Translations under genes and position numbers: made by a program | Origin: a virus | Taxonomy: Duplodnaviria > Heunggongvirae > Uroviricota > Caudoviricetes | IMG/VR virus record: IMGVR_UViG_2548876959_000009 | Direction: 5' to 3' (one strand) | Length of the DNA stretch: 16,706 nt | The notes under the pieces: model-generated | The model's database searches: none | Told to the model about the DNA's origin: nothing | Seen by the model: only the letters and a program-made list of their open reading frames with translations | Shown: piece after piece, positions 1 through 16,706 of the stretch | Position numbering within the stretch: position 1 is the first letter of the stretch | How the letters are laid out: each line of letters begins with the position of its first letter

Positions 1-2454
<2,454 letters not shown>

Positions 2455-2458
<4 letters not shown>

Positions 2459-3063
2459 GCGTTTACTCTCAGATTATCAATTAAATGAATGGCCGGGGCA
2501 GGGAAATAATCCCCTTCGACAATAATAGACTCCGGGGTGTAGGGATAAACCGTCAGGGCATCGCCGTGATAGCATCCCGTACCAACGAAAATCTTTCCGT
2601 TCACACTCAGGCTGATCGCCAGCCCCGTCAGATGGCGACTTACTGGTTTTGCATCCGCAATAAGGCGCTCAAGTTCCTGATACATTTCATCGGTGATGCC
2701 CTGATCAAGTACTCCGACAACAATGCGAAATGTTCCTGGCTCCTCGTTGAGTTGCCACCACTCCTTTACTTCAATCAGGTAGCCGAGAGGCTCCACGGCT
2801 CTTCGCAGTGCGCTGATGGTCCCTTTGTGTCGGTGTGTCAGCCATGCATCACGAATCACCTGTCGCTTTGTCTCTTCCGGCCAGTTGCGATCCCAGCGGT
2901 CAACGGAAAACGCCCAGGCGAGATAAGGCAGCAGATGCACCGGGCAGGTGTCCGGCGACCACAGCGTGTTGAGGTCTACCGGAATGTCTGTAATGCGTGT
3001 TCCGACGGCTTCGGCACAACGCATGAAATTGCTGGCTGATGGTGGTAACAGTGAATTACTCAT
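2455..3063 (-). CDS. I: Phage tail protein I (P2 gpI-like, baseplate/tail-fibre attachment)
   Basis: Motifs [25 protein letters not shown] and [11 protein letters not shown]...[33 protein letters not shown] align with P2 gpI. Start is placed at the internal ATG at 3063 (MSNSLLPP), which has an AAGGTGGG RBS and overlaps the gpJ stop; the ORF track extends to 3096. Confidence 0.85.
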
Positions 3064-3952
3064 TGCGCCCACCTTCGCTGATGGTGAATGACTCACAGCG
3101 CGCCGCCTGTATGTCGCTGATGGCCATATTCTGTGTGGGTTCGGTTATCTCCACGCGTTGCACACCGTGCACATGCAGTGCGGCAGCAATGGCGGACAAC
3201 GCCACGTCCTGACCGATAAGCCCCTGTTCAGCCAGCCACTTCCTGAATGACGATTCCGCCGCGGCCAGAATAGGTTCGGATTCCGGGCCGGGATAAAAGT
3301 ACAGTTTTGCATTCAGCCGCCATGTCACGATGCTGGCGCTCTGTACCGTCAGGCGGTCGGCCACCGGGCGGGTATCCTCTGCATTCAGAACGGCGCGAAC
3401 GGTATTAAGCAACGCCTCCGTTGCTGTGCCGTCGCCTTCAGTGGACAGAATGGAAACCGTCACACAGGCCGGAGACGGGCTGATGGCCCGCGCATCACGC
3501 ACCAGACCGTTGGCGCTGCGTGCAAAATACTCGTATGCACCTGACGGGCCAGCAACACTCAGGCCGTCATACGCCCGCTGCGCCCGCAGTCTCAGCGAGG
3601 TGTCGCTCTCCATCACCGCGTCGGTGGTATCCGTTGCCGGAGTGATAACCAGGCGCTTTGTGTTCATATTGCCCGCGAGGTTGTCCAGGTCTGTCCCGGC
3701 GCTGTGGCTTAACATGCAGGCGCGTGCCCCCTCGTTAACCCGCTGGCGTAACAGCATTTCACGAAAAGACATGGTTTGAGCGATAACGTTAAGGGGTTCC
3801 GATTCCAGCTCCAGCGCGGCGGAAACGGCTTCACGCTGTTCGGCGGGATAAGCCGCAATTATCATGGCCTTTGTGTCAGCCAGAATTGCCTCAAAGTCAG
3901 GCTCCGCGATGATGGCGGGGTCCGGTAACTGTGAAAGGTCAACGGCGGGCAT
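3056..3952 (-). CDS. J: Baseplate assembly protein J (P2 gpJ-like)
   Basis: 298 aa. Conserved blocks (LESEPL, QRVNEGARA, SPSPACVTVSILS, RPVADRLTVQSA, YFYPGPESEPI, HVHGVQRVEI) are co-linear with P2 gpJ. Confidence 0.9.
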   Translation of the reverse strand: MPAVDLSQLPDPAIIAEPDFEAILADTKAMIIAAYPAEQREAVSAALELESEPLNVIAQTMSFREMLLRQRVNEGARACMLSHSAGTDLDNLAGNMNTKRLVITPATDTTDAVMESDTSLRLRAQRAYDGLSVAGPSGAYEYFARSANGLVRDARAISPSPACVTVSILSTEGDGTATEALLNTVRAVLNAEDTRPVADRLTVQSASIVTWRLNAKLYFYPGPESEPILAAAESSFRKWLAEQGLIGQDVALSAIAAALHVHGVQRVEITEPTQNMAISDIQAARCESFTISEGGRNE

Positions 3953-4306: not shown

Positions 4307-4884
4307 TGCGGGCCTCCTGTCGAATCGCTGCCACCTTTCACGCCACCGTGTTTATGCGTATGCACGGTAATGCCGTTTGAGGTGAAGTTGCCGCCGCTGT
4401 GCGTGATATTGCCGCTCATCTTTCCTCCTTTTGTGACGTCAAGCATCGCAGTTCTCAGAAGGTCTGTGCATTCCACGACGGGCGTGTCCAGTGTCACGCT
4501 GACGGATGCCTGCAGGGTGGCTGTTTTCATGCCGCTGGCGCTCAGTGCGCCTGCGTCCGCGTCGTAGCGGAACACCGCGCCATCCGGCGCGCTGACCACG
4601 ATTTCTTTCAGGCTTTTGCCGGGTGCCGGAATGGCATCACTCCACAGGCTGCCGATTATCATGGCGGTTTCCGGGTTGCCGCCAATGCAGGCAATTACCA
4701 CCTGTTCGCCTGGTGATGGCGGCAGCCACACATTGAAGGCTCCCGCGCGCGTGGTGTTCCAGCGCAGCCAGCCTGTTTCCAGTTCGCCGCTGCGAACGCG
4801 CACGAGCCAGGACTTCTCATCAACTTCAGAGATGATCCCGGTGCGGATGATGTTGCTCAGCAGTCGCATGAGTTCTGCGCTCAC
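4303..4884 (-). CDS. V: Baseplate hub/spike protein V (P2 gpV-like)
   Basis: 193 aa with IRTGII, GEQVV, VSAPDGAVFRYD and a C-terminal GNITHSGGNFTSNGITVHTHKHGG spike motif like P2 gpV. ATGA overlap with W. Confidence 0.85.
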   Translation of the reverse strand: MSAELMRLLSNIIRTGIISEVDEKSWLVRVRSGELETGWLRWNTTRAGAFNVWLPPSPGEQVVIACIGGNPETAMIIGSLWSDAIPAPGKSLKEIVVSAPDGAVFRYDADAGALSASGMKTATLQASVSVTLDTPVVECTDLLRTAMLDVTKGGKMSGNITHSGGNFTSNGITVHTHKHGGVKGGSDSTGGPQ

Positions 4885-5525
4885 CGTACAGCCTCCGCAA
4901 TCCGGCCCAGCACGGTGTTATAAATCAGGCGTTCATCTGCCTGGCTGATACCCAACAGCTCACGTACCGGGTAATCGGTGAAAATGCCCGGCGAAACCTG
5001 ATCGCGCTCACCGAACTGATGAACGCGTGCAATACGTGCGGCCACGCCGCTGTAACCCACCGTCACACCGGAAGCATCTGCACCGGCTTTCAGGTAGCGG
5101 GCGGTGCGCAGTTTTACGAACATGGGGACGCGCTTTGTGCTGTCCTGGTTGATGCGCCGGGTGCGTATTTCCAGAAAACGGTCGATGTCATCCCGGTAAA
5201 ACGTGCGGATATTGTTTTTATCCTCATCCCACCCGGTAATGGTTCGCCCGTATTTCCCCGTGTCGTGATGCCAGTTTTTCAGCGTGCGTGCTTCGTTATT
5301 CCAGATAAAGCGAATACGTTCCTGTATCCGGGTTACGCGGCGTCTGCGTGGTGTCCATGCGGTCCCGTCCGGCGCTTTCTGTGACCGGATACGCGCCTGC
5401 TGGGCGCGGCGTAAATCCTGTGCCAGCTTTCTGGCGATGTTATTGATGGCCTGCTGATTCAGGCTGTCGCGGATGGCCTCAAAGGTTTCATCCACGCGGG
5501 TGAATGCCTTATCCATCGCTTTCAC
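4881..5525 (-). CDS. S: Phage virion morphogenesis / tail completion protein (P2 gpS family), with an internal insertion of roughly 60 aa
   Basis: The N-terminal (RRAQQARIRSQKAPDGTAWTPRRRR) and C-terminal (KLRTARYLKA...VHQFGERD) blocks look like the Phage_tail_S family. Position between R and V matches P2. ATGA overlap with V. Confidence 0.75.
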   Translation of the reverse strand: MKAMDKAFTRVDETFEAIRDSLNQQAINNIARKLAQDLRRAQQARIRSQKAPDGTAWTPRRRRVTRIQERIRFIWNNEARTLKNWHHDTGKYGRTITGWDEDKNNIRTFYRDDIDRFLEIRTRRINQDSTKRVPMFVKLRTARYLKAGADASGVTVGYSGVAARIARVHQFGERDQVSPGIFTDYPVRELLGISQADERLIYNTVLGRIAEAVR

Positions 5526-5976
5526 CCCACGTCACATCCTGGAATACATGCGACCAGTCGCCTTCGGAAGAGGGCAGACGGGGTTTTGGCTCCTGCAGGT
5601 GTTCTGCCTGCGGTGTCCCCTGACTGTTGCGCGTAATGCGAACGCGTTCCCGCAGGGGGAGCGTAAACAGGAGATCGGCGCTGTCATCGTCATTGATAAC
5701 GGCGGAAAATTTGATGTCCTGATTACGCTCCGGATTGAGCAACAACTGTGGCTGATTTTCGGATAACCACGCCAGCAGCGGCAGCGTGAGGTCGTCCAGC
5801 TCTCCGGCGTAATCCATGACAAACATCACCATCTGATAGCGGTAAACAAACGAGGGCGTTTCTCCGGTCGTTTCAATGTTGCCGCTCTCCACGAAAATGG
5901 TGAATTTCTCGGGATTAGCCTGGCACCACCGACATCCATGAAGCATGGACTCTCGCAGACTGTTTGTCTTAAGCAT
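5509..5976 (-). CDS. R: Tail completion protein R (P2 gpR-like)
   Basis: 155 aa, MLKTNSLR...LPLLAWLSENQP, similar to P2 gpR (MLKPDSLR...VPVLAWLRENQP). Confidence 0.8.
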   Translation of the reverse strand: MLKTNSLRESMLHGCRWCQANPEKFTIFVESGNIETTGETPSFVYRYQMVMFVMDYAGELDDLTLPLLAWLSENQPQLLLNPERNQDIKFSAVINDDDSADLLFTLPLRERVRITRNSQGTPQAEHLQEPKPRLPSSEGDWSHVFQDVTWGESDG

Positions 5977-5999
5977 CTGTTTTGCTCTCCTGCTCTTCC

Positions 6000-7880
6000 T
6001 TATACTGCGGGATTATTGATTTCCAGCACCAGGCTGCCGATATCGACGCCGTACGCGGCATTTTTAGTGATATCAGTTAACGTCAGCGCATTCAGCCCCA
6101 GTGTCAGACTGTCTTTTATGACCTGGAATGCCGGGCCAGCCACTCCATTCAGTTTCGGAGTAACCGTGGCACTGCCGGCGGTGAACACCAGCTCCAGCGT
6201 CTGCCAGTCGTTACTGTAATTCCCGAACTCGCCCAACTTTGTGTTTCCGGCTTTCTTGTGATGCATCAGATTCAGTTTGCCGTCTGTGGTCTGGGTGAAG
6301 AACGACATCAGGAACGGGTTACCAGTCCCGGTCATCGCCACGACGTCAGGTAACGCTACATCGGTATACAGATAAATTCCCAGACCGAACTGGTTGTTGG
6401 TCAGTGCGCCTGACAGTCGAAACTTACAGCTCAGTCTGCCACCCCGTGTCAGCAGGGAGACTGCGTCATCCACCGGATGCATCAGGGACCAAGTTTTATT
6501 GCTCTGCTTGGTAACCTTAAACACACCATCTTCCAGCGCAACACTGCCGCCGGTGATGGTCCAGCCCTGCGCAGCAGCCTCTCCGGCTGTCGGCAGCAGG
6601 GAGACTGTACGAACGGATGTGTCACCATCAGACGGCCCCGATGGAGTGTCGCCGCCGGGCGAGGGTTTGATTTCCGGTGCGGTACCGCTGATGAAGGCGC
6701 TGGTTCGACCAACTGCGTTCAGAATAGCGGTTGCCAGGCGATCCGAAATAATGCCCCTGCGCGCCCATGAACTGAAATGTGTCGGACGATTTGACGATAC
6801 CCAATTACCATTACTACGGGATTGCGCGCCGTAATAACCTGCATCAGCAATATCCGGGTCTTCTGCCGGTAAGTTGGTGGGCGTGTTGTTGCCGTTACCG
6901 TCGGTAATGAACGGCACAAAGAAAACGTTGTCGCTCTCCCTGTTTTTGTACGCGCCGTAGACGGAGTCATACTGTGTGCCGTATGTGTTTTTCCAGTAAT
7001 ACGTCGTGTCGCCACAAATCCACGGTATAACTGCAGCACTGCCGCCATGGCACTGCGCGTTAAATCCGGAAAGGTCAGTACGGAACTGCTTCAGCATGGC
7101 CGTGAACAGGTCCGGTTGCTGTGCGTAGGTGGCAGCGCTCATGTCAAATTCGCCCTGCATCCAGCACACCGCCAGCAACACATTTTTCGGGTTCTTCTGT
7201 AATGCCGCTTTGGTGCGTGCGATCAGGTCCTGATATAACGGCTTACCCGCACCCCAGCGCGCCGAATCCTGGCTGGCCCCCGTGGTCGTACTGAATGTTC
7301 CCTCCGCGCCCTGAGTGAATGCCGAACCACCACGACAGCATGGTACCAGCAGGATCCCCGCGTTATTCGGGATATACGGAAGTAGTTTTTTGGCAATATG
7401 AAGTCCCTGTCCCACACAGCCGTACTGACCTTTGCTCAGGTCCGCCTTCGGATGATTCAGCGTACTCATATCCTGCACATCATGCAGACAGTGGTCAGCC
7501 GGGATGATGTCGTTATACGTACAACCCTCTCCACCCGGGGTTACCGTACTGCGGCGCGCCAGCTGTTTAATGCGCGGATCCGGAGCATCGTAAGAATCCG
7601 GTAACGGAAGCCCTTCACCGTAAGCCATGCCGTTGGACTGCCCGGCAAGCACAACCACGTAGTACCATTCCGGCGTCTTGTTGTTTGGTAATGGCTCAGA
7701 GGGCGTCTCGGTGGCACCATCGGCCACCATGGCCTGCATGAGATACCACGGGGTGCCGGGCTCGTAAGCTACCCGTGTGTCCCCCTGAAGATGCCACCCC
7801 TTCGCAAGATATTCATTCACTTTCCGGGTCAGTTCAGCCTGTGTCATGGCTGTAATCAGTGCAAAGTTCTTACTGGTCAT
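6000..7880 (-). CDS. Prophage cargo protein: N-terminal DUF1737-like domain, SASA/SGNH-type esterase domain (GQSN motif, sialate O-acetylesterase-like), C-terminal lectin-like domain; NanS-p-like
   Basis: 626 aa. VVVLAGQSNGMAYGEG gives the GQSN serine motif of SASA (carbohydrate O-acetylesterase) domains. The ~50-aa N-terminal domain followed by a long C-terminal region resembles the prophage NanS-p esterases of EHEC lambdoid phages. Its start ATG overlaps the o-spanin stop (ATGA). No P2 counterpart exists at this position. Confidence 0.7.
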   Translation of the reverse strand: MTSKNFALITAMTQAELTRKVNEYLAKGWHLQGDTRVAYEPGTPWYLMQAMVADGATETPSEPLPNNKTPEWYYVVVLAGQSNGMAYGEGLPLPDSYDAPDPRIKQLARRSTVTPGGEGCTYNDIIPADHCLHDVQDMSTLNHPKADLSKGQYGCVGQGLHIAKKLLPYIPNNAGILLVPCCRGGSAFTQGAEGTFSTTTGASQDSARWGAGKPLYQDLIARTKAALQKNPKNVLLAVCWMQGEFDMSAATYAQQPDLFTAMLKQFRTDLSGFNAQCHGGSAAVIPWICGDTTYYWKNTYGTQYDSVYGAYKNRESDNVFFVPFITDGNGNNTPTNLPAEDPDIADAGYYGAQSRSNGNWVSSNRPTHFSSWARRGIISDRLATAILNAVGRTSAFISGTAPEIKPSPGGDTPSGPSDGDTSVRTVSLLPTAGEAAAQGWTITGGSVALEDGVFKVTKQSNKTWSLMHPVDDAVSLLTRGGRLSCKFRLSGALTNNQFGLGIYLYTDVALPDVVAMTGTGNPFLMSFFTQTTDGKLNLMHHKKAGNTKLGEFGNYSNDWQTLELVFTAGSATVTPKLNGVAGPAFQVIKDSLTLGLNALTLTDITKNAAYGVDIGSLVLEINNPAV

Positions 7881-8188
7881 TGTGTTACTCCCGTCTGGTG
7901 TGTCAGTTCGGCTATTCTCTTATCCAGTTCAGCAATGGCCCGTTTATCCGCGTTACAGGTTTCCAGTGCATCCAGAAGGCGGTCGCCCCATATTCCGAGG
8001 TTTCCCCATGTGGGTGGGTCAGGGAAGGGGGGAGGCGTTACCGGCATGGTCAGCGTCTGCGGTATAAGCCGGACTGACGGCGCTGGCCGTGGCGCGTTCT
8101 GCGTGCCTGCGCAACCTGTCAGTAAAACGAGCGTCAGGCAAAGCGTGGGCGCATTCATCTTTTGCAATATCGTTGCGTAGCTGTTCAC
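7877..8188 (-). CDS. lysC: o-spanin (Rz1/LysC-like outer-membrane lipoprotein), overlapping the i-spanin gene in another frame
   Basis: Signal peptide with lipobox LLTGC and a proline-rich stretch (PVTPPPFPDPPTW). Starts inside the i-spanin ORF and extends past its end, as in P2 lysB/lysC. An alternative start is at 8158. Confidence 0.7.
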   Translation of the reverse strand: MNSYATILQKMNAPTLCLTLVLLTGCAGTQNAPRPAPSVRLIPQTLTMPVTPPPFPDPPTWGNLGIWGDRLLDALETCNADKRAIAELDKRIAELTHQTGVTQ

Positions 8189-8426
8189 GTCTTACCTCTC
8201 CGTCCTGATTGCGTTGCTGATTTTCCGCGCGGAGTTGAGCCAGCACCTGCTGCATATCCTGTACCCCGGCGCTGATGATATTCAGTGTGTCGACGGTACT
8301 TTTCAGGGTGCTGGTCTGCGCTTCGTTTCTGGCGTTCTCCCGGCCCAGCGACCACGACAGACGCATGGATGTTCCCCATGCGGCAATCAGAAGGAAAGCG
8401 ACGCCAAGCATGGGCCAGAGCTTCAT
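8019..8426 (-). CDS. lysB: i-spanin (Rz/LysB-like), N-terminal transmembrane segment and coiled-coil periplasmic domain
   Basis: Start placed at the internal ATG at 8426 (MKLWPMLGVAFLLIAAWG), which overlaps the endolysin stop (ATGA). The Q/E/R-rich helical region is typical of Rz. The ORF track extends upstream to 8570 inside the endolysin gene. Confidence 0.7.
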   Translation of the reverse strand: MKLWPMLGVAFLLIAAWGTSMRLSWSLGRENARNEAQTSTLKSTVDTLNIISAGVQDMQQVLAQLRAENQQRNQDGEVRREQLRNDIAKDECAHALPDARFTDRLRRHAERATASAVSPAYTADADHAGNASPLP

Positions 8427-8815
8427 GCCGGATAGGCTCCGTGTGGTAACTGAAAATGCGGTCCGTCTTTCAGGGTCTTCCAGTCGCCGCCCCATTCCAC
8501 CGGAATATTCAGTTCCTGGCTGGCCTGTCTGAATGCTGCTGCGATTTTTTCGTACAGCGGCCATTCCCATGACACCTGGCTGCCGACATAAGCCACAACA
8601 TCCACGGCATGCCCCGTAAGGTGGCGGCTGTTTATGGTATGGCTCTTACCCGTGGCCACAAGTTGCTTCTGGCGGTAACGGCTGCGCAATCCTTCGGTGA
8701 TACCAAAATCCACTTCCGAAATTTCCAGTGCCCGTCGGGTCACTTTCACCAGATCAGGATTTACGCCCTGCAAATTCTTTTCGCTCCGGCTGCTGAATTT
8801 AAATGTGTTGCTCAT
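8423..8815 (-). CDS. Endolysin, peptidase M15 family (zinc D-Ala-D-Ala carboxypeptidase / L-Ala-D-Glu peptidase-like)
   Basis: 130 aa with SRHLTGHAVDV ... DGPHFQL, consistent with the zinc-binding H/D/H motifs of M15-type lysins. ATGA overlap with the holin stop. Confidence 0.8.
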   Translation of the reverse strand: MSNTFKFSSRSEKNLQGVNPDLVKVTRRALEISEVDFGITEGLRSRYRQKQLVATGKSHTINSRHLTGHAVDVVAYVGSQVSWEWPLYEKIAAAFRQASQELNIPVEWGGDWKTLKDGPHFQLPHGAYPA

Positions 8816-9135
8816 TCGTCCTTCTCCTTCACCCTGCGATTAAAGGCCGCAATAACCTTGTCGCGTACTTTCTCTGCCCCCATAAAACCGATTGATGCGC
8901 CGATAAACGTTACGGCATCTTCAGGAAACCCGAAGAAGCGCAACGACCCGGCCACGGCCATGGCAAGAACGCCGCACGCCAGCGATCCCGTTACGGTCTG
9001 AACCAGTGTTCGTCCGTCATAAAGACTCATCAGCGCGGAAATGCTGACCGCCGCGCCTACTGCATACACCGTTGGCAGGTGGTCAAAGAGCCACGCAATA
9101 ACCTGCTCTGTGATCCCTGTTTGAATGGTGCTCAC
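8812..9135 (-). CDS. Holin (about 107 aa, three predicted transmembrane segments)
   Basis: Hydrophobic segments YAVGAAVSISALMSLY, TGSLACGVLAMAVAGSL and VTFIGASIGFMGA, with a charged C-terminus (RRVKEKDE). Start placed at a GTG at 9135 preceded by GGGGGGAG; the ORF track's longer frame (to 9354) would overlap gpX. Confidence 0.65.
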   Translation of the reverse strand: MSTIQTGITEQVIAWLFDHLPTVYAVGAAVSISALMSLYDGRTLVQTVTGSLACGVLAMAVAGSLRFFGFPEDAVTFIGASIGFMGAEKVRDKVIAAFNRRVKEKDE

Positions 9136-10781: not shown

Positions 10782-11834
10782 TTAGCTGTCGGCGAACTTC
10801 AGGCCAGTGATCATCGCGCACTTGCCATAGTCTTCAACGACATAAGCGTCATTGATGGACTGGTAGGTGGCGATGCGGTTGTATTCCGGCTCGTCTTTCA
10901 TCAGGCGACGCATTGAACCTTTCTGCCAGTAAATCGACAGGTTGTTGAACGAGGTGATAAGCATCGTTGCATCCGGGAAGAACGGCGCAAGGAACACGCC
11001 CAGCCCGCCAATGGTGCGCGATGACAGGATGAGCTGCCCGGCAAGTAATTCCGCATTGGGATTCTGGCCGCTGATGCTGTTCAGCACGGGCAGACGCAGC
11101 GAGTTAAACAGGTTGCGCCCCATAATCACCGCGAGGTCGTCAGCTTCCTTGTGCCATTCATCCAGCAGGGATGAGCGCGCATCCTGTACCAGAGCATCGG
11201 CATTCGCATACTTACCCGCGTGCGCCACAGTGTTGTCCATGTTGCGGGAGGTCAGCGTCACGTCATTCATTACGCGCTCGCTGGCATCGGTTCTGATGTG
11301 CTCCAGCCAGCCCACGTTAACGTCCTGAAGCAGCTTGTTGGTGTGAAAATCAGACTCGTAGGCGTGGGATGTGCCGTTAAAGCCAATCATGATGCGATCA
11401 AGCGCTACCTGCCGGGCGATCTGTGTACTGATACGGGACTGAAAATCGCTGTGGGCCGCCCAGGTATCAAGCTGTGGGTACGAAATAAAGGTATCGTAGT
11501 TCACCTGTTCGCACTGGTACTGACGAGACTTCATATCGATCACGTTATTCGGGTTACGGCGTTTGATGCCGTCATAACTGCTATTCGTGCGCGCAATTGG
11601 CCCGGTGGTGTCCAGGAGGATTTTTTCGCCTTTCTGGTCGGTCACGCCGATCACGTTAATTCTTTTCGTAAATTCGGTACTTTCCTTTGAGGCGTTTTCA
11701 AAACGCTGCTGCACCGCGGGTTCCACGGTAAATCGCGATACCAGTGCAGATACCGGGATATTGTTAAGCGACGCCTGCTGCGCCATATAGCAACCCAGCT
11801 TGTTGCGGGTAATATCTGACATCACCAGATTCAT
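10782..11834 (-). CDS. N: Major capsid protein N (P2 gpN-like)
   Basis: 350 aa with FTVEP, MIGFNG, VGWL, YFPDATMLIT, NLSIYWQ and YVVEDYG blocks matching P2 gpN. AAGGAG RBS upstream. Confidence 0.9.
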   Translation of the reverse strand: MNLVMSDITRNKLGCYMAQQASLNNIPVSALVSRFTVEPAVQQRFENASKESTEFTKRINVIGVTDQKGEKILLDTTGPIARTNSSYDGIKRRNPNNVIDMKSRQYQCEQVNYDTFISYPQLDTWAAHSDFQSRISTQIARQVALDRIMIGFNGTSHAYESDFHTNKLLQDVNVGWLEHIRTDASERVMNDVTLTSRNMDNTVAHAGKYANADALVQDARSSLLDEWHKEADDLAVIMGRNLFNSLRLPVLNSISGQNPNAELLAGQLILSSRTIGGLGVFLAPFFPDATMLITSFNNLSIYWQKGSMRRLMKDEPEYNRIATYQSINDAYVVEDYGKCAMITGLKFADS

Positions 11835-15646: not shown

Positions 15647-15939
15647 CGCGCTTCGCTTGTCTGCTGCTTCGCTGGGGCATAAAAAATTTATGCCCCGACT
15701 CTCCAGCTCCTGTATCAATCAGATAATTTCACGACGCTTTCCTGCTTATTGCCATCATCGACAGTCAGACTCTTACGCAATCCCACCGCGTTGATTGCAT
15801 GTTCTCGCCGTCTCAGTGCGATTTTGACGGCCTTACCTTTCACCTCATCAAATCAAAAGCCCTCACGTCTTTTTCACGCTCAGCGTGAGAAATACAGCCA
15901 TTCTGTTGTGTCGCTGCGACATCGTTCAGGGGATGCTAT

Positions 15940-15980
15940 TTACCCCCTGAAACGCGGGCTGTTCCCCCGTCACCTGCGCG
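15940..15980. other. Candidate cos (cohesive-end) site of the prophage
   Basis: The reverse complement of GGGCTGTTCCCCCGTCACC resembles the G-rich 19-nt cohesive end of P2/186 as I recall it (GGCGAGGCGGGGAAAGCAC type). The location downstream of the portal gene is as in P2. This is a memory-based comparison, not an alignment. Confidence 0.2.
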
Positions 15981-16000
15981 CAGAAAAAGCGCGTTTTTTT
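15976..16000 (+). terminator. Intrinsic terminator for the P-Q late operon
   Basis: GC stem CGCGC (15977-15981) pairs with GCGCG (15989-15993), loop AGAAAAA, followed by seven T at 15994-16000. Confidence 0.6.
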
Positions 16001-16070
16001 GTGCACGCACGGATCCTTGACGGATCCAGCCGCCATACGGGCCGGAAGGGTAAAAAGTCGTTCAAAAAAA

Positions 16071-16100
16071 TTGTGCAAATTTGTGCACTTTTGTGCAAAC
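16071..16100 (+). repeat. Three phased 10-bp direct repeats: TTGTGCAAAT, TTGTGCACTT, TTGTGCAAAC
   Basis: Read directly from the sequence; helical-period spacing next to the terminator hairpin, in the non-coding post-portal region. Confidence 0.5.
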
Positions 16101-16102
16101 AA

Positions 16103-16123
16103 AAAGCGCCCCTGAGGCGCTTT
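16103..16123 (-). terminator. Hairpin terminator (possibly bidirectional) ending the convergent minus-strand small operon
   Basis: AAAGCGCC-CCTGA-GGCGCTTT: an 8-bp stem with 5-nt loop, with a T-rich run after it on the minus-strand transcript and TTTAGTGTTTT on the plus strand. Lies 35 nt downstream of the 87-aa ORF stop. Confidence 0.5.
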
Positions 16124-16157
16124 AGTGTTTTATAGGTTGTGTATATTTGCTGGGTCC

Positions 16158-16421
16158 TTATCCTGCTGTGCTTTCAACTGATGAGGGGAACAAAATCTTT
16201 TCATCAAACCCTGCATTCATATCATGGACAGCAACACACCAATCCATTGACGAACGATTATCAAGAGCCTCCATGATTTCATCCATGCGGCGTAGGTCAT
16301 ACAGGTAAATGCTTTTATCGCCAATGGTGTAAAAACCAATTTTTTTCGGTGATGGACAGCGATCAAGAACGTCCTGTAATTCGCTCAACCATGCTTGTTC
16401 TTTTTTTGTCAAAGTTGCCAT
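16158..16421 (-). CDS. Hypothetical small protein (87 aa), last gene of a convergent operon in the post-portal variable region
   Basis: Strong RBS AAAGGAGAG 4 nt before ATG (MATLTKKEQAWLSEL...). Acidic, no predicted transmembrane segment, no recognisable motif. The ORF track's longer version starts at an upstream TTG (16442). Confidence 0.5.
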   Translation of the reverse strand: MATLTKKEQAWLSELQDVLDRCPSPKKIGFYTIGDKSIYLYDLRRMDEIMEALDNRSSMDWCVAVHDMNAGFDEKILFPSSVESTAG

Positions 16422-16422
16422 A

Positions 16423-16599
16423 TCACTCTCCTTTGATGCCAATGTCTACAGCTTGGCAAGCCTCTTTGGTCACCCAGTCAATAGCGTCTTTCCATACTCC
16501 AGTTTCGACTGGCGGATTCTCACGCTTTACCTGTTCATAGAAACGCACCGCTCTAACCAGTCCATCTGGTACTGCTGGCGCTGGCGGCTCTCGATACAT
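16423..16599 (-). CDS. Hypothetical small ORF (58 aa) translationally coupled to the downstream 87-aa ORF
   Basis: ATG at 16599; stop TGA sits 1 nt before the next ATG (TGAtATG). Weak RBS, below the ORF-track size cut-off, no recognisable motif; its coding status is uncertain. Confidence 0.3.
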   Translation of the reverse strand: MYREPPAPAVPDGLVRAVRFYEQVKRENPPVETGVWKDAIDWVTKEACQAVDIGIKGE

Positions 16600-16706
16600 A
16601 GGGATAACACGTCGCAGGTCCGCGTATTTATCTGGCGGACACTGATATATCGTAAGCGTGCAGCAAGAACCGTATTGACGGGGATGTGTTATTCAGTCGG
16701 CAGTGC

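Follow-up and report, generated by a model that had tools for sequence, protein, structure and literature searches.

The DNA analysed here, a stretch of 16,706 nt from the virus record IMGVR_UViG_2548876959_000009 (Caudoviricetes) referred to as the window, holds the late region of a P2-like prophage and carries between lysC and the tail completion gene R an intact gene for a 626-aa protein of the NanS-p family, which is already well known from Shiga toxin (Stx) and non-Stx prophages. The esterase and lectin-like domains of this protein are exchanged as one cassette between P2-like and lambdoid prophages, whereas its N-terminal DUF1737 domain is a distinct, P2-specific variant. Among the NanS-p loci compared, the DUF1737 variant is moreover paired with the head type of the phage. 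These three points, i.e., the P2-specific N-terminus, the payload exchange across phage families and the variant-head pairing, are new, while the core claim of a preceding sequence-only reading, a SASA-type esterase gene coupled to the lysis cassette of a P2-like prophage, is right but concerns a common feature. In the searchable literature, no description of nanS-p in P2-like phages was found (both terms occur in one paper, but in passages unrelated to each other), and a function of DUF1737 was found only in a single preprint (bioRxiv 10.64898/2026.04.10.717836). RefSeq annotates the window's gene generically as 'DUF6645 domain-containing protein'.

Domain architecture and active site

The open reading frame (ORF) at 6000..7880 is real and intact according to ORF list and translation, and begins with ATG. 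Pfam assigns three domains, all above gathering scores, namely DUF1737 (aa 4-53), SASA (aa 75-271) and DUF6645 (aa 477-587), and PHROG 143 matches the protein over its full length at 1078 bits, far beyond chance. The gene and its parts are as follows:

6000..7880, minus strand: nanS-p-type gene, 626 aa, DUF1737 plus SASA esterase plus DUF6645 lectin-like domain (Pfam, PHROG 143, PDB 3PT5/6YP6)
7713..7880, minus strand: N-terminal DUF1737 domain, P2-type variant, aa 1-56 (PF08410, 27.5 bits versus a cut-off of 24)
7674..7712, minus strand: linker 1, aa 57-69, TETPSEPLPNNKT, not conserved (8% identity among P2-type copies)
6696..7673, minus strand: SASA/SGNH esterase domain, aa 70-395 (residue-by-residue alignment to NanS 3PT5)
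6003..6590, minus strand: C-terminal lectin-like jelly-roll domain, aa 431-626, DUF6645 (PF20350, E=2e-19; 6YP6; Foldseek)

Residues 69-388 align to the crystal structure of Escherichia coli NanS/YjhS (3PT5, E=3e-122), with about 65% identity in the catalytic domain, and residues 431-623 to the C-terminal lectin domain of the phi24B NanS-p (6YP6, E=4e-30). The sequence blocks described for NanS, GQSNA, RGGSAF, MQGEFD and R-x-SHFS (PMC10792757), are all kept as GQSNG, RGGSAF, MQGEFD and RPTHFS, placing Ser82 within AGQSNGM (codon 7635-7637) and His368 within RPTHFSS (codon 6777-6779). In NanS, the serine and the histidine have been confirmed by mutagenesis, while the acid was not identified (PMC10017367). 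The canonical SGNH aspartate two residues before the histidine of block V is not present, the motif reading R-P-T-H here and R-x-S-H in NanS. As the departure is the same as in NanS, it is no argument against activity, and the Ser-His-Asp triad predicted by the sequence-only reading does not apply to the NanS subfamily. Its assignment of a GQSN serine motif of SASA/SGNH esterases and of a NanS-p-like layout, on the other hand, was borne out, with DUF1737 and SASA found by the Pfam search in the same three-domain order as in the phage enzymes of enterohemorrhagic E. coli (EHEC). Hence, the protein is a NanS-p family member with intact active-site residues.

An AlphaFold2 (AF2) model, built from a shallow alignment (mean pLDDT 65.6) and used for the N- and C-terminal domains only, predicts a strand-helix-strand-strand fold (one helix, three strands) for the former and a confident beta-sandwich (pLDDT of about 80-93) for the latter. 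Best Foldseek matches are 3PT5 and 6YP6 (TM 0.85 to 6YP6), followed by carbohydrate-recognition domains of L-type lectins. All three domains are under purifying selection, with ratios of nonsynonymous to synonymous substitution rates (dN/dS) between 0.07 and 0.3; together with the intact ORF and the conserved catalytic residues, these values rule out a pseudogene or decaying passenger. A hydrophobic signal sequence was not found in the translation, the N-terminus beginning directly with the DUF1737 domain matched by Pfam, so that extracellular glycans would be reachable only through lysis.

Mosaic structure and exchange of the esterase-lectin core

Comparison with the nanS-p gene of the lambdoid locus L018 divides the protein sharply. 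At the amino acid level, identity amounts to 34% in DUF1737 and 0% in linker 1, rising to 96% in the esterase domain, 100% in linker 2 and 99% in the lectin domain. The corresponding DNA is delimited by blastn:

6015..7674, minus strand: block common to lambdoid nanS-p genes, codons 70-622 (95.6% nucleotide identity to L018, sharp ends)

Among P2-type copies, this core is between 85 and 99.9% identical at the nucleotide level, some P2-type cores are 98% identical to lambdoid ones, and with respect to the core the P2-type copies are not monophyletic. When core clusters are formed by single linkage at ≥95% amino acid identity, the window's cluster holds both P2-type and lambdoid-type genes. The shared cluster and the near-identical cores indicate an esterase-lectin cassette in exchange, and judging from these relationships the payload encoded by codons 70-622 is passed by recombination among P2-like and lambdoid prophages. 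The presence of the gene in a phage which the sequence-only reading called 'unrelated' is thus not a convergent acquisition but reflects the swapping of an enzyme cassette between the two groups.

The DUF1737 domain has a different history. It is 84-100% identical among P88-type copies, 57-67% identical to that of divergent P2-like phages and only 34-37% identical to lambdoid variants. The divergent P2-like phages have kept a P2-type DUF1737 although their core is only about 51-55% identical, and this variant was found only beside P2-type lysis genes. Its dN/dS of 0.08-0.22 corresponds to purifying selection. A stand-alone gene from which the P2-type DUF1737 might descend was not found in protein-index or HMMER searches: querying an index of 5.8 billion proteins with the 69-aa N-terminus returned only truncated fragments of the same gene, and an exhaustive HMMER search with the same domain gave seven matches, namely members of the same lineage, one false positive of low complexity and a few short DUF1737 proteins that came without context. 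A scan of genome contigs yielded five loci only and was uninformative.

Hybrid junctions inside nanS-p are seen in public contigs. Loci L016 (IMGVR_UViG_2529292998_000004) and L017 show P2-type lysis genes and DUF1737 upstream and a lambdoid holin and a 933W-type endolysin downstream, the change from P2-type to lambdoid sequence falling close to the nanS-p stop codon, where the shared block ends on its 3' side (homology to the window ends at 6015). These hybrids, along with phage records ending within the gene (see below), mean either that nanS-p mediates recombination between prophages or that it breaks assemblies and prophage predictions. In any event, the cassette represents about 1.7 kb of near-identical DNA in unrelated prophages of one chromosome and thus a substrate for inter-prophage recombination.

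Pairing of DUF1737 variants and head modules

For the DUF1737 domain of phi24B gp84 (NanS-p), cryo-EM and proteomic evidence for capsid binding has been reported, with hexamers plugging the central pore of capsid hexons via a Tyr42 loop and the esterase being processed off the virion (bioRxiv 10.64898/2026.04.10.717836). This raises the question whether DUF1737 variants track head modules. In a sample of 160 IMG/VR loci from two NanS-p scans, seven divergent P2-like loci and eight GenBank phages, the N-termini fell into four variants and the heads into four modules, paired as follows:

933W-type DUF1737: head with a Phage_capsid_3 major capsid protein (MCP)
JLK-type DUF1737: head with an S78 protease-Phage_capsid fusion
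L126-type DUF1737: head with a ClpP-Phage_capsid_4 fusion and a lambda-like gpA terminase
P2-type DUF1737: head with Phage_cap_P2

The variant matches the head module in 49 of the 50 loci with a visible head gene. Counted as distinct sequence pairs from loci with a full-length gene, 16, 15, 9 and 6 are concordant and one is discordant. Locus L106 (LC727845, Stx2a_JNE112618), bearing a 933W-type N-terminus without a matching head, was considered as a further counter-example and rejected. Its nanS-p is frameshifted and split into ORFs of 268 and 369 aa. In the interval separating its lysis region from lambda-like tail-tip genes, none of the four head types is represented by a terminase, portal or capsid gene; with its head genes deleted, this record, deposited as a complete phage genome, seems to be a degraded Stx2a prophage.

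The pairing does not follow from the neighboring sequence. One core cluster (≥95% amino acid identity) occurs with the 933W, JLK and L126 variants, and single clusters of the 2.4 kb of upstream sequence likewise occur with several DUF1737 variants. The Stx phage 933W and an Stx2c phage, for example, are 94% identical in the upstream DNA, 96% in the core and 95% in the downstream DNA, but have different head modules and DUF1737 domains that diverge in their second half. Lambdoid variants have residues 1-30 in common and differ mainly at about residues 31-56, and it is this stretch which in the 933W/phi24B-type N-terminus holds Tyr42, the capsid anchor of phi24B gp84 according to the preprint. 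The strict DUF1737-head pairing provides independent comparative support for NanS-p as a capsid-decorating protein, and P2/P88 offers a simple and well-understood capsid system in which this claim becomes testable.

Insertion into the P88 backbone and occupancy of the lysC-R slot

Outside nanS-p, the window is about 97% identical at the nucleotide level to phage P88 and its kin (Xuanwuvirus, Peduoviridae), matching in two pieces. P88 and its close kin do not carry nanS-p, while both flanks are matched in blastn comparison, so that the gene is an insertion relative to the P88 backbone, as anticipated from the sequence alone. The segment concerned exceeds the gene itself:

5936..7932: segment of 1,997 bp replacing 92 bp of P88, comprising nanS-p and divergent ends of its two neighbors, 3' for lysC and 5' for R (blastn)

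Compared with P88, in which the start codon of R falls within the last lysC codons, the last approximately 17 codons of lysC and the first approximately 14 codons of R differ. Since the gene arrived with foreign lysC and R ends, the comparison points to recombination with another P2-like phage already carrying nanS-p and disfavors a fresh illegitimate insertion.

Among 5,426 complete E. coli genomes, 373 show the whole R/nanS-p/lysC arrangement and 689 an uninterrupted P88-type junction. Genomes with filled sites include enteroaggregative E. coli (EAEC) 55989 as well as isolates from human stool, animals and river water. In addition, three GenBank records of P88-like phages (PV468777, ON470623 and ON470599, one from an O25b:H4-ST131 host) carry the gene, annotated as hypothetical or DUF1737 protein, and each record ends inside it. 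The same slot is occupied in seven IMG/VR contigs from far more divergent P2-like phages, whose gpR, gpS and LysC are only 56-58, 45-48 and 41-54% identical, respectively, and which encode a lysozyme-type endolysin. In six of these, a full-length gene for a 642-656-aa DUF1737+SASA+DUF6645 protein directly follows lysC and ends 300-400 bp before R, while the seventh contig ends within nanS-p. Two of the divergent loci, L098 and L101, gave no match to GenBank phages with megablast. Consequently, the lysC-R slot is widely but not always occupied by nanS-p, which is a polymorphic gene of P2-like phages and no rare or independent find; a conserved structural gene of all P2-like phages is ruled out by P88 and by the 689 empty sites, which make up about 65% of P88-type sites.

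Gene order and expression signals

Nearly all genes of this P2-like late region lie on the minus strand, with a transcription order of O-N-M-L-X-holin-endolysin-lysB-lysC-nanS-p-R-S, followed by V, W, J, I and H, while P and Q are divergent; O is the scaffold gene and M the terminase gene. Gene set and order are those of P2-type phages (Pfam P2_Phage_GpR, Phage_tail_S, Phage_GPL and Phage_cap_P2). Neighbors were assigned by Pfam and PHROG matches and by RefSeq annotation of loci with 99.8-99.9% identity:

10782..11834, minus strand: major capsid protein gpN, P2 family (Pfam Phage_cap_P2, E=1e-115)
8812..9135, minus strand: holin (Pfam Phage_holin_3_1; start from RefSeq annotation)
8423..8815, minus strand: endolysin, peptidase M15 (Pfam PF13539, PHROG 465)
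8019..8426, minus strand: lysB, i-spanin (PHROG 214 Rz-like spanin, E=5e-41; RefSeq annotation of a 99.8% identical locus)
7877..8158, minus strand: lysC, o-spanin (Pfam LysC PF23793, E=3e-14; ATG at 8158; translation)
5509..5976, minus strand: tail completion gene R (Pfam P2_Phage_GpR, E=2e-38)
4881..5516, minus strand: tail completion/virion morphogenesis gene S (Pfam Phage_tail_S; RefSeq annotation)

The position and neighbors of the 626-aa gene given in the sequence-only reading were hence confirmed, as was the overlap of its ATG (7880-7878) with the lysC TGA (7879-7877) in a 4-nt ATGA. A GGGAG Shine-Dalgarno sequence lies 7 nt upstream of the nanS-p start, and only 23 nt separate its TAA from the ATG of R, which has its own GGAGAG. 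Consensus scans for promoters and terminators between 4800 and 10000 of the window gave sites not above shuffled expectation and none in either nanS-p junction. As R and S lie downstream, late transcripts must cross nanS-p, and without transcription signals of its own the gene would be transcribed and translated together with the lysis and virion genes. From this arrangement, nanS-p is expected to be transcribed in the late operon supplying R and S, and its translation is probably coupled to lysC. The production alongside the lysis proteins proposed before is in line with the operon embedding and the start/stop overlap, from which late co-expression follows naturally, but the label 'moron' does not fit: with the 4-nt overlap, the 23-nt gap and scans at the shuffled level, a classical moron with its own promoter and terminator was rejected.

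Proposed function and alternative explanations

Taken as a whole, a NanS-p esterase embedded in the P88-type late operon, with a modular payload and a head-matched DUF1737, is considered the probable account. The protein would act as a sialate 9-O-acetylesterase with an SGNH/SASA fold and Ser82 and His368 as catalytic residues, flanked by DUF1737 at the N-terminus and by the lectin-like carbohydrate-binding domain at the C-terminus. It would be transcribed late with the lysis and virion genes and, lacking an export signal, would leave the cell only at lysis. Prophage NanS-p proteins from EDL933 and O104:H4 are active esterases on Neu5,9Ac2 and mucin (PMC8065619), and by homology and from such assays of other alleles the enzyme of the window would likewise remove 9-O-acetyl groups from mucin sialic acids or free Neu5,9Ac2, with the lectin domain targeting it to glycans. 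DUF1737 may attach it, at least transiently, to the gpN capsid. In that case, a mucin-directed esterase/lectin would be, or would at some time have been, mounted on the virions that exit the cell, and enzyme left free would help surviving lysogens to forage for sialic acid. Release at lysis, as advanced by the sequence-only reading, thus stands insofar as lysis would be the only exit; free enzyme, however, is just one option, with the head-matched DUF1737 and the phi24B preprint pointing to display on the virion. That the P2-type DUF1737 anchors the enzyme to the gpN shell, in the way described for phi24B, is the favored reason for its head-specific character, with a probability that we put at about even. 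The wider proposal, DUF1737 as a capsid-type-specific docking family and esterase-lectin as an exchangeable payload plugged onto each phage family's own adaptor, is more tentative and falls somewhat short of an even chance. If true, about 7% of sequenced E. coli, among them extraintestinal pathogenic (ExPEC) ST131 and EAEC 55989 lineages, would release P2-like virions that display a mucin-directed sialate O-acetylesterase at cell exit, and NanS-p would primarily have a phage-particle function in mucus adherence or penetration and not be a bacterial metabolic gene. Users of the payload would then be lambdoid podoviruses and siphoviruses, P2-like myoviruses and, with a different N-terminus, Mu-like phages.

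Several points weigh against capsid docking. In locus L162 (IMGVR_UViG_2541047174_000010), the sole mismatch, a JLK-type DUF1737 (100%) is combined with an L126-like head (ClpP-MCP fusion 94%, terminase 72%). The concordant loci are prophages of related E. coli and phylogenetically non-independent. Docking has been reported in a single preprint, for a podovirus with a T=9 capsid, in which the domain sits only on face-centered hexons, absent in the T=7 capsid of P2, and the esterase is cleaved off the virion (bioRxiv 10.64898/2026.04.10.717836). Moreover, the AF2 model is poor at aa 55-161 (pLDDT <50), and the seemingly interrupted tail-fiber gene H of the window (see below) may mean that this prophage copy forms no infectious particles, or may be a sequencing error. 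Finally, patch-wise gene conversion of the core could keep N-terminus and head together passively, and in P2-like phages the N-terminus lies at the head-proximal end of the gene, where linkage alone would keep it with the adjoining head-proximal genes. These last considerations belong to an alternative in which NanS-p is purely lysogen-benefit cargo, i.e., a soluble public good letting survivors use O-acetylated sialic acids, with DUF1737 having no role in the virion and its backbone-specific pattern being a by-product of gene conversion homogenizing only the conserved core. This explanation agrees with growth data published on EHEC NanS-p alleles (PMC8065619; PMC5923452), E. coli genomes with a match to this stretch have it at 2 places in the median and at 11 at most, which favors gene conversion, and the sharp ends of the shared block fall where nucleotide similarity drops. 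Nevertheless, DUF1737 is under purifying selection and has long been kept in divergent P2-like lineages, the variable segment of lambdoid copies matches a head module about 5-10 kb downstream even where upstream sequence and core are near-identical, and capsid binding in phi24B has direct cryo-EM and proteomic evidence (bioRxiv 10.64898/2026.04.10.717836). The purely lysogen-directed role is therefore considered rather unlikely.

Still less probable is a receptor-modifying enzyme which would deacetylate bacterial surface polysaccharides, i.e., the O-antigen or capsules, for instance those of O-acetylated polysialic acid, and in the manner of a receptor-destroying enzyme would uncover receptors during infection or keep progeny phages from adhering to debris. 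This idea has been raised for NanS-p (PMC8065619), a virion-attached position would suit it (bioRxiv 10.64898/2026.04.10.717836), and a near-identical prophage encodes an acetyltransferase-like protein with hexapeptide repeats, which might act in the opposite sense in lysogenic conversion. Yet the catalytic domain is closely related to NanS, whose substrate is 9-O-acetyl sialic acid, the phi24B domain sits on the capsid and not on the tail with the enzyme being shed (bioRxiv 10.64898/2026.04.10.717836), and about two thirds of P88-type prophages manage without nanS-p. A structural component conserved in all P2-like phages, or a functionless passenger in decay, would be consistent with the location among structural genes and with a possible tail-fiber defect of this prophage copy, but is highly improbable in view of the empty sites, the intact ORF with its catalytic residues and the low dN/dS.

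Comparison with known systems

The closest relatives, NanS-p proteins of lambdoid and Stx phages (933W L0105/z1466; phi24B gp84, i.e., vb_24B_21; JLK-2012 yjhS), show the same three-domain architecture, with identities in esterase and lectin domains of 96-99% to lambdoid L018, about 85-89% to JLK-2012 and 70 and 38%, respectively, to 933W. Like these, the window's gene is prophage-borne, located in a late operon adjoining lysis genes and devoid of a signal peptide; unlike these, it has a DUF1737 variant (34-37% identity) seen only in P2-like phages, and its host phage is a Peduoviridae myovirus with a gpN capsid. The slot differs as well. Whereas lambdoid copies lie between Q/stx and the holin gene, the window's gene overlaps lysC and follows the spanins, before R and S, so that the 'equivalent lysis-adjacent slot' postulated earlier is not strictly equivalent. 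Expression of the window's gene would depend on the P2-type late activator, that of lambdoid copies on Q antitermination.

Slot equivalence is further weakened by a relative in a Mu-like prophage (P0096, 682 aa, loci L093-L095) with homologous SASA and DUF6645 domains (60% identity over 89% of the query), encoded between gin and com/mom, followed by DUF1378 and DUF826 genes and away from lysis genes. Instead of DUF1737, this protein has an unrelated N-terminal stretch of about 110 aa without Pfam match. The three loci were identified as Mu-like by Mu gp45-48 baseplate genes, the gin invertase and com/mom. Until now, NanS-p has been regarded as belonging to the lambdoid prophages of EHEC, Stx and non-Stx alike, and as feeding the lysogen on mucin sialic acids; with the same cassette circulating in P2-like prophages and a relative in a Mu-like prophage, the gene pool and the recombination partners are much wider than described. 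A SASA family esterase with a DUF1737 N-terminus is also found in the '434B nonhomology' region of the classical lambdoid phage 434 (OL657226, hit H142), showing that NanS-p relatives are not confined to prophages of pathogens.

Chromosomal NanS (YjhS, nanCMS operon, 3PT5), aligned over aa 69-388 of the window's protein, has the blocks GQSN, RGGSAF, MQGEFD and HFS in common with it, but is a single-domain sialoregulon enzyme without DUF1737 or lectin domain and is not phage-borne (PMC10017367). With capsid decoration proteins binding at hexon centers, as the N-domain of phi24B gp84, the modeled DUF1737 would share the one-helix three-strand fold, and the window's variant tracks the capsid type; T4 Hoc and T5 pb10 are cited as further hexon-center binders (bioRxiv 10.64898/2026.04.10.717836). 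Compared with phi24B, however, the anchoring loop differs in length and sequence, and the capsid to be bound would be of the P2-type T=7 form. Classical accessory genes of P2, the 'morons', are orf30, Z/fun, tin and old. Like them, nanS-p is dispensable and present in only part of the P2-like genomes, but it differs in occupying the lysC-R slot without its own transcription signals, the essential downstream genes R and S being read through it.

Further observations on the window and a sister genome

The lysC start in RefSeq (PGAP) yields a 62-aa protein (7877-8065) without lipoprotein signal, while the ATG at 8158 (ORF within 7877-8188) gives MNAPTLCLTLVLLTG directly followed by C, a proper o-spanin lipobox; the public start is probably too short. 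The tail-fiber gene H (443-2458, minus strand) looks interrupted, with an ORF of 496 aa (from 2458 to 968) stopping within the Collar domain and a 107-aa ORF (from 886 to 563) following in another frame. A near-identical RefSeq locus annotates it as 'tail fiber protein, frameshifted'. In the sister genome L005 (strain 2013C-3342), just left of the part corresponding to the window, a 190-aa 'serine acetyltransferase' is encoded at 2850-3422 in an accessory slot adjoining the tail-fiber assembly gene, its hexapeptide-repeat matches being weak and under the Pfam cut-off; a functional link between this acetyltransferase-like gene and the O-acetylesterase gene of the same prophage is possible. Beyond the portal gene Q, both the window (15749-16706) and L005 (19753-21201) carry small ORFs without Pfam matches, which in L005 are followed by a gene of a plasmid partitioning/stability family and a ParM gene, unusual neighbors for a P2-like late region.

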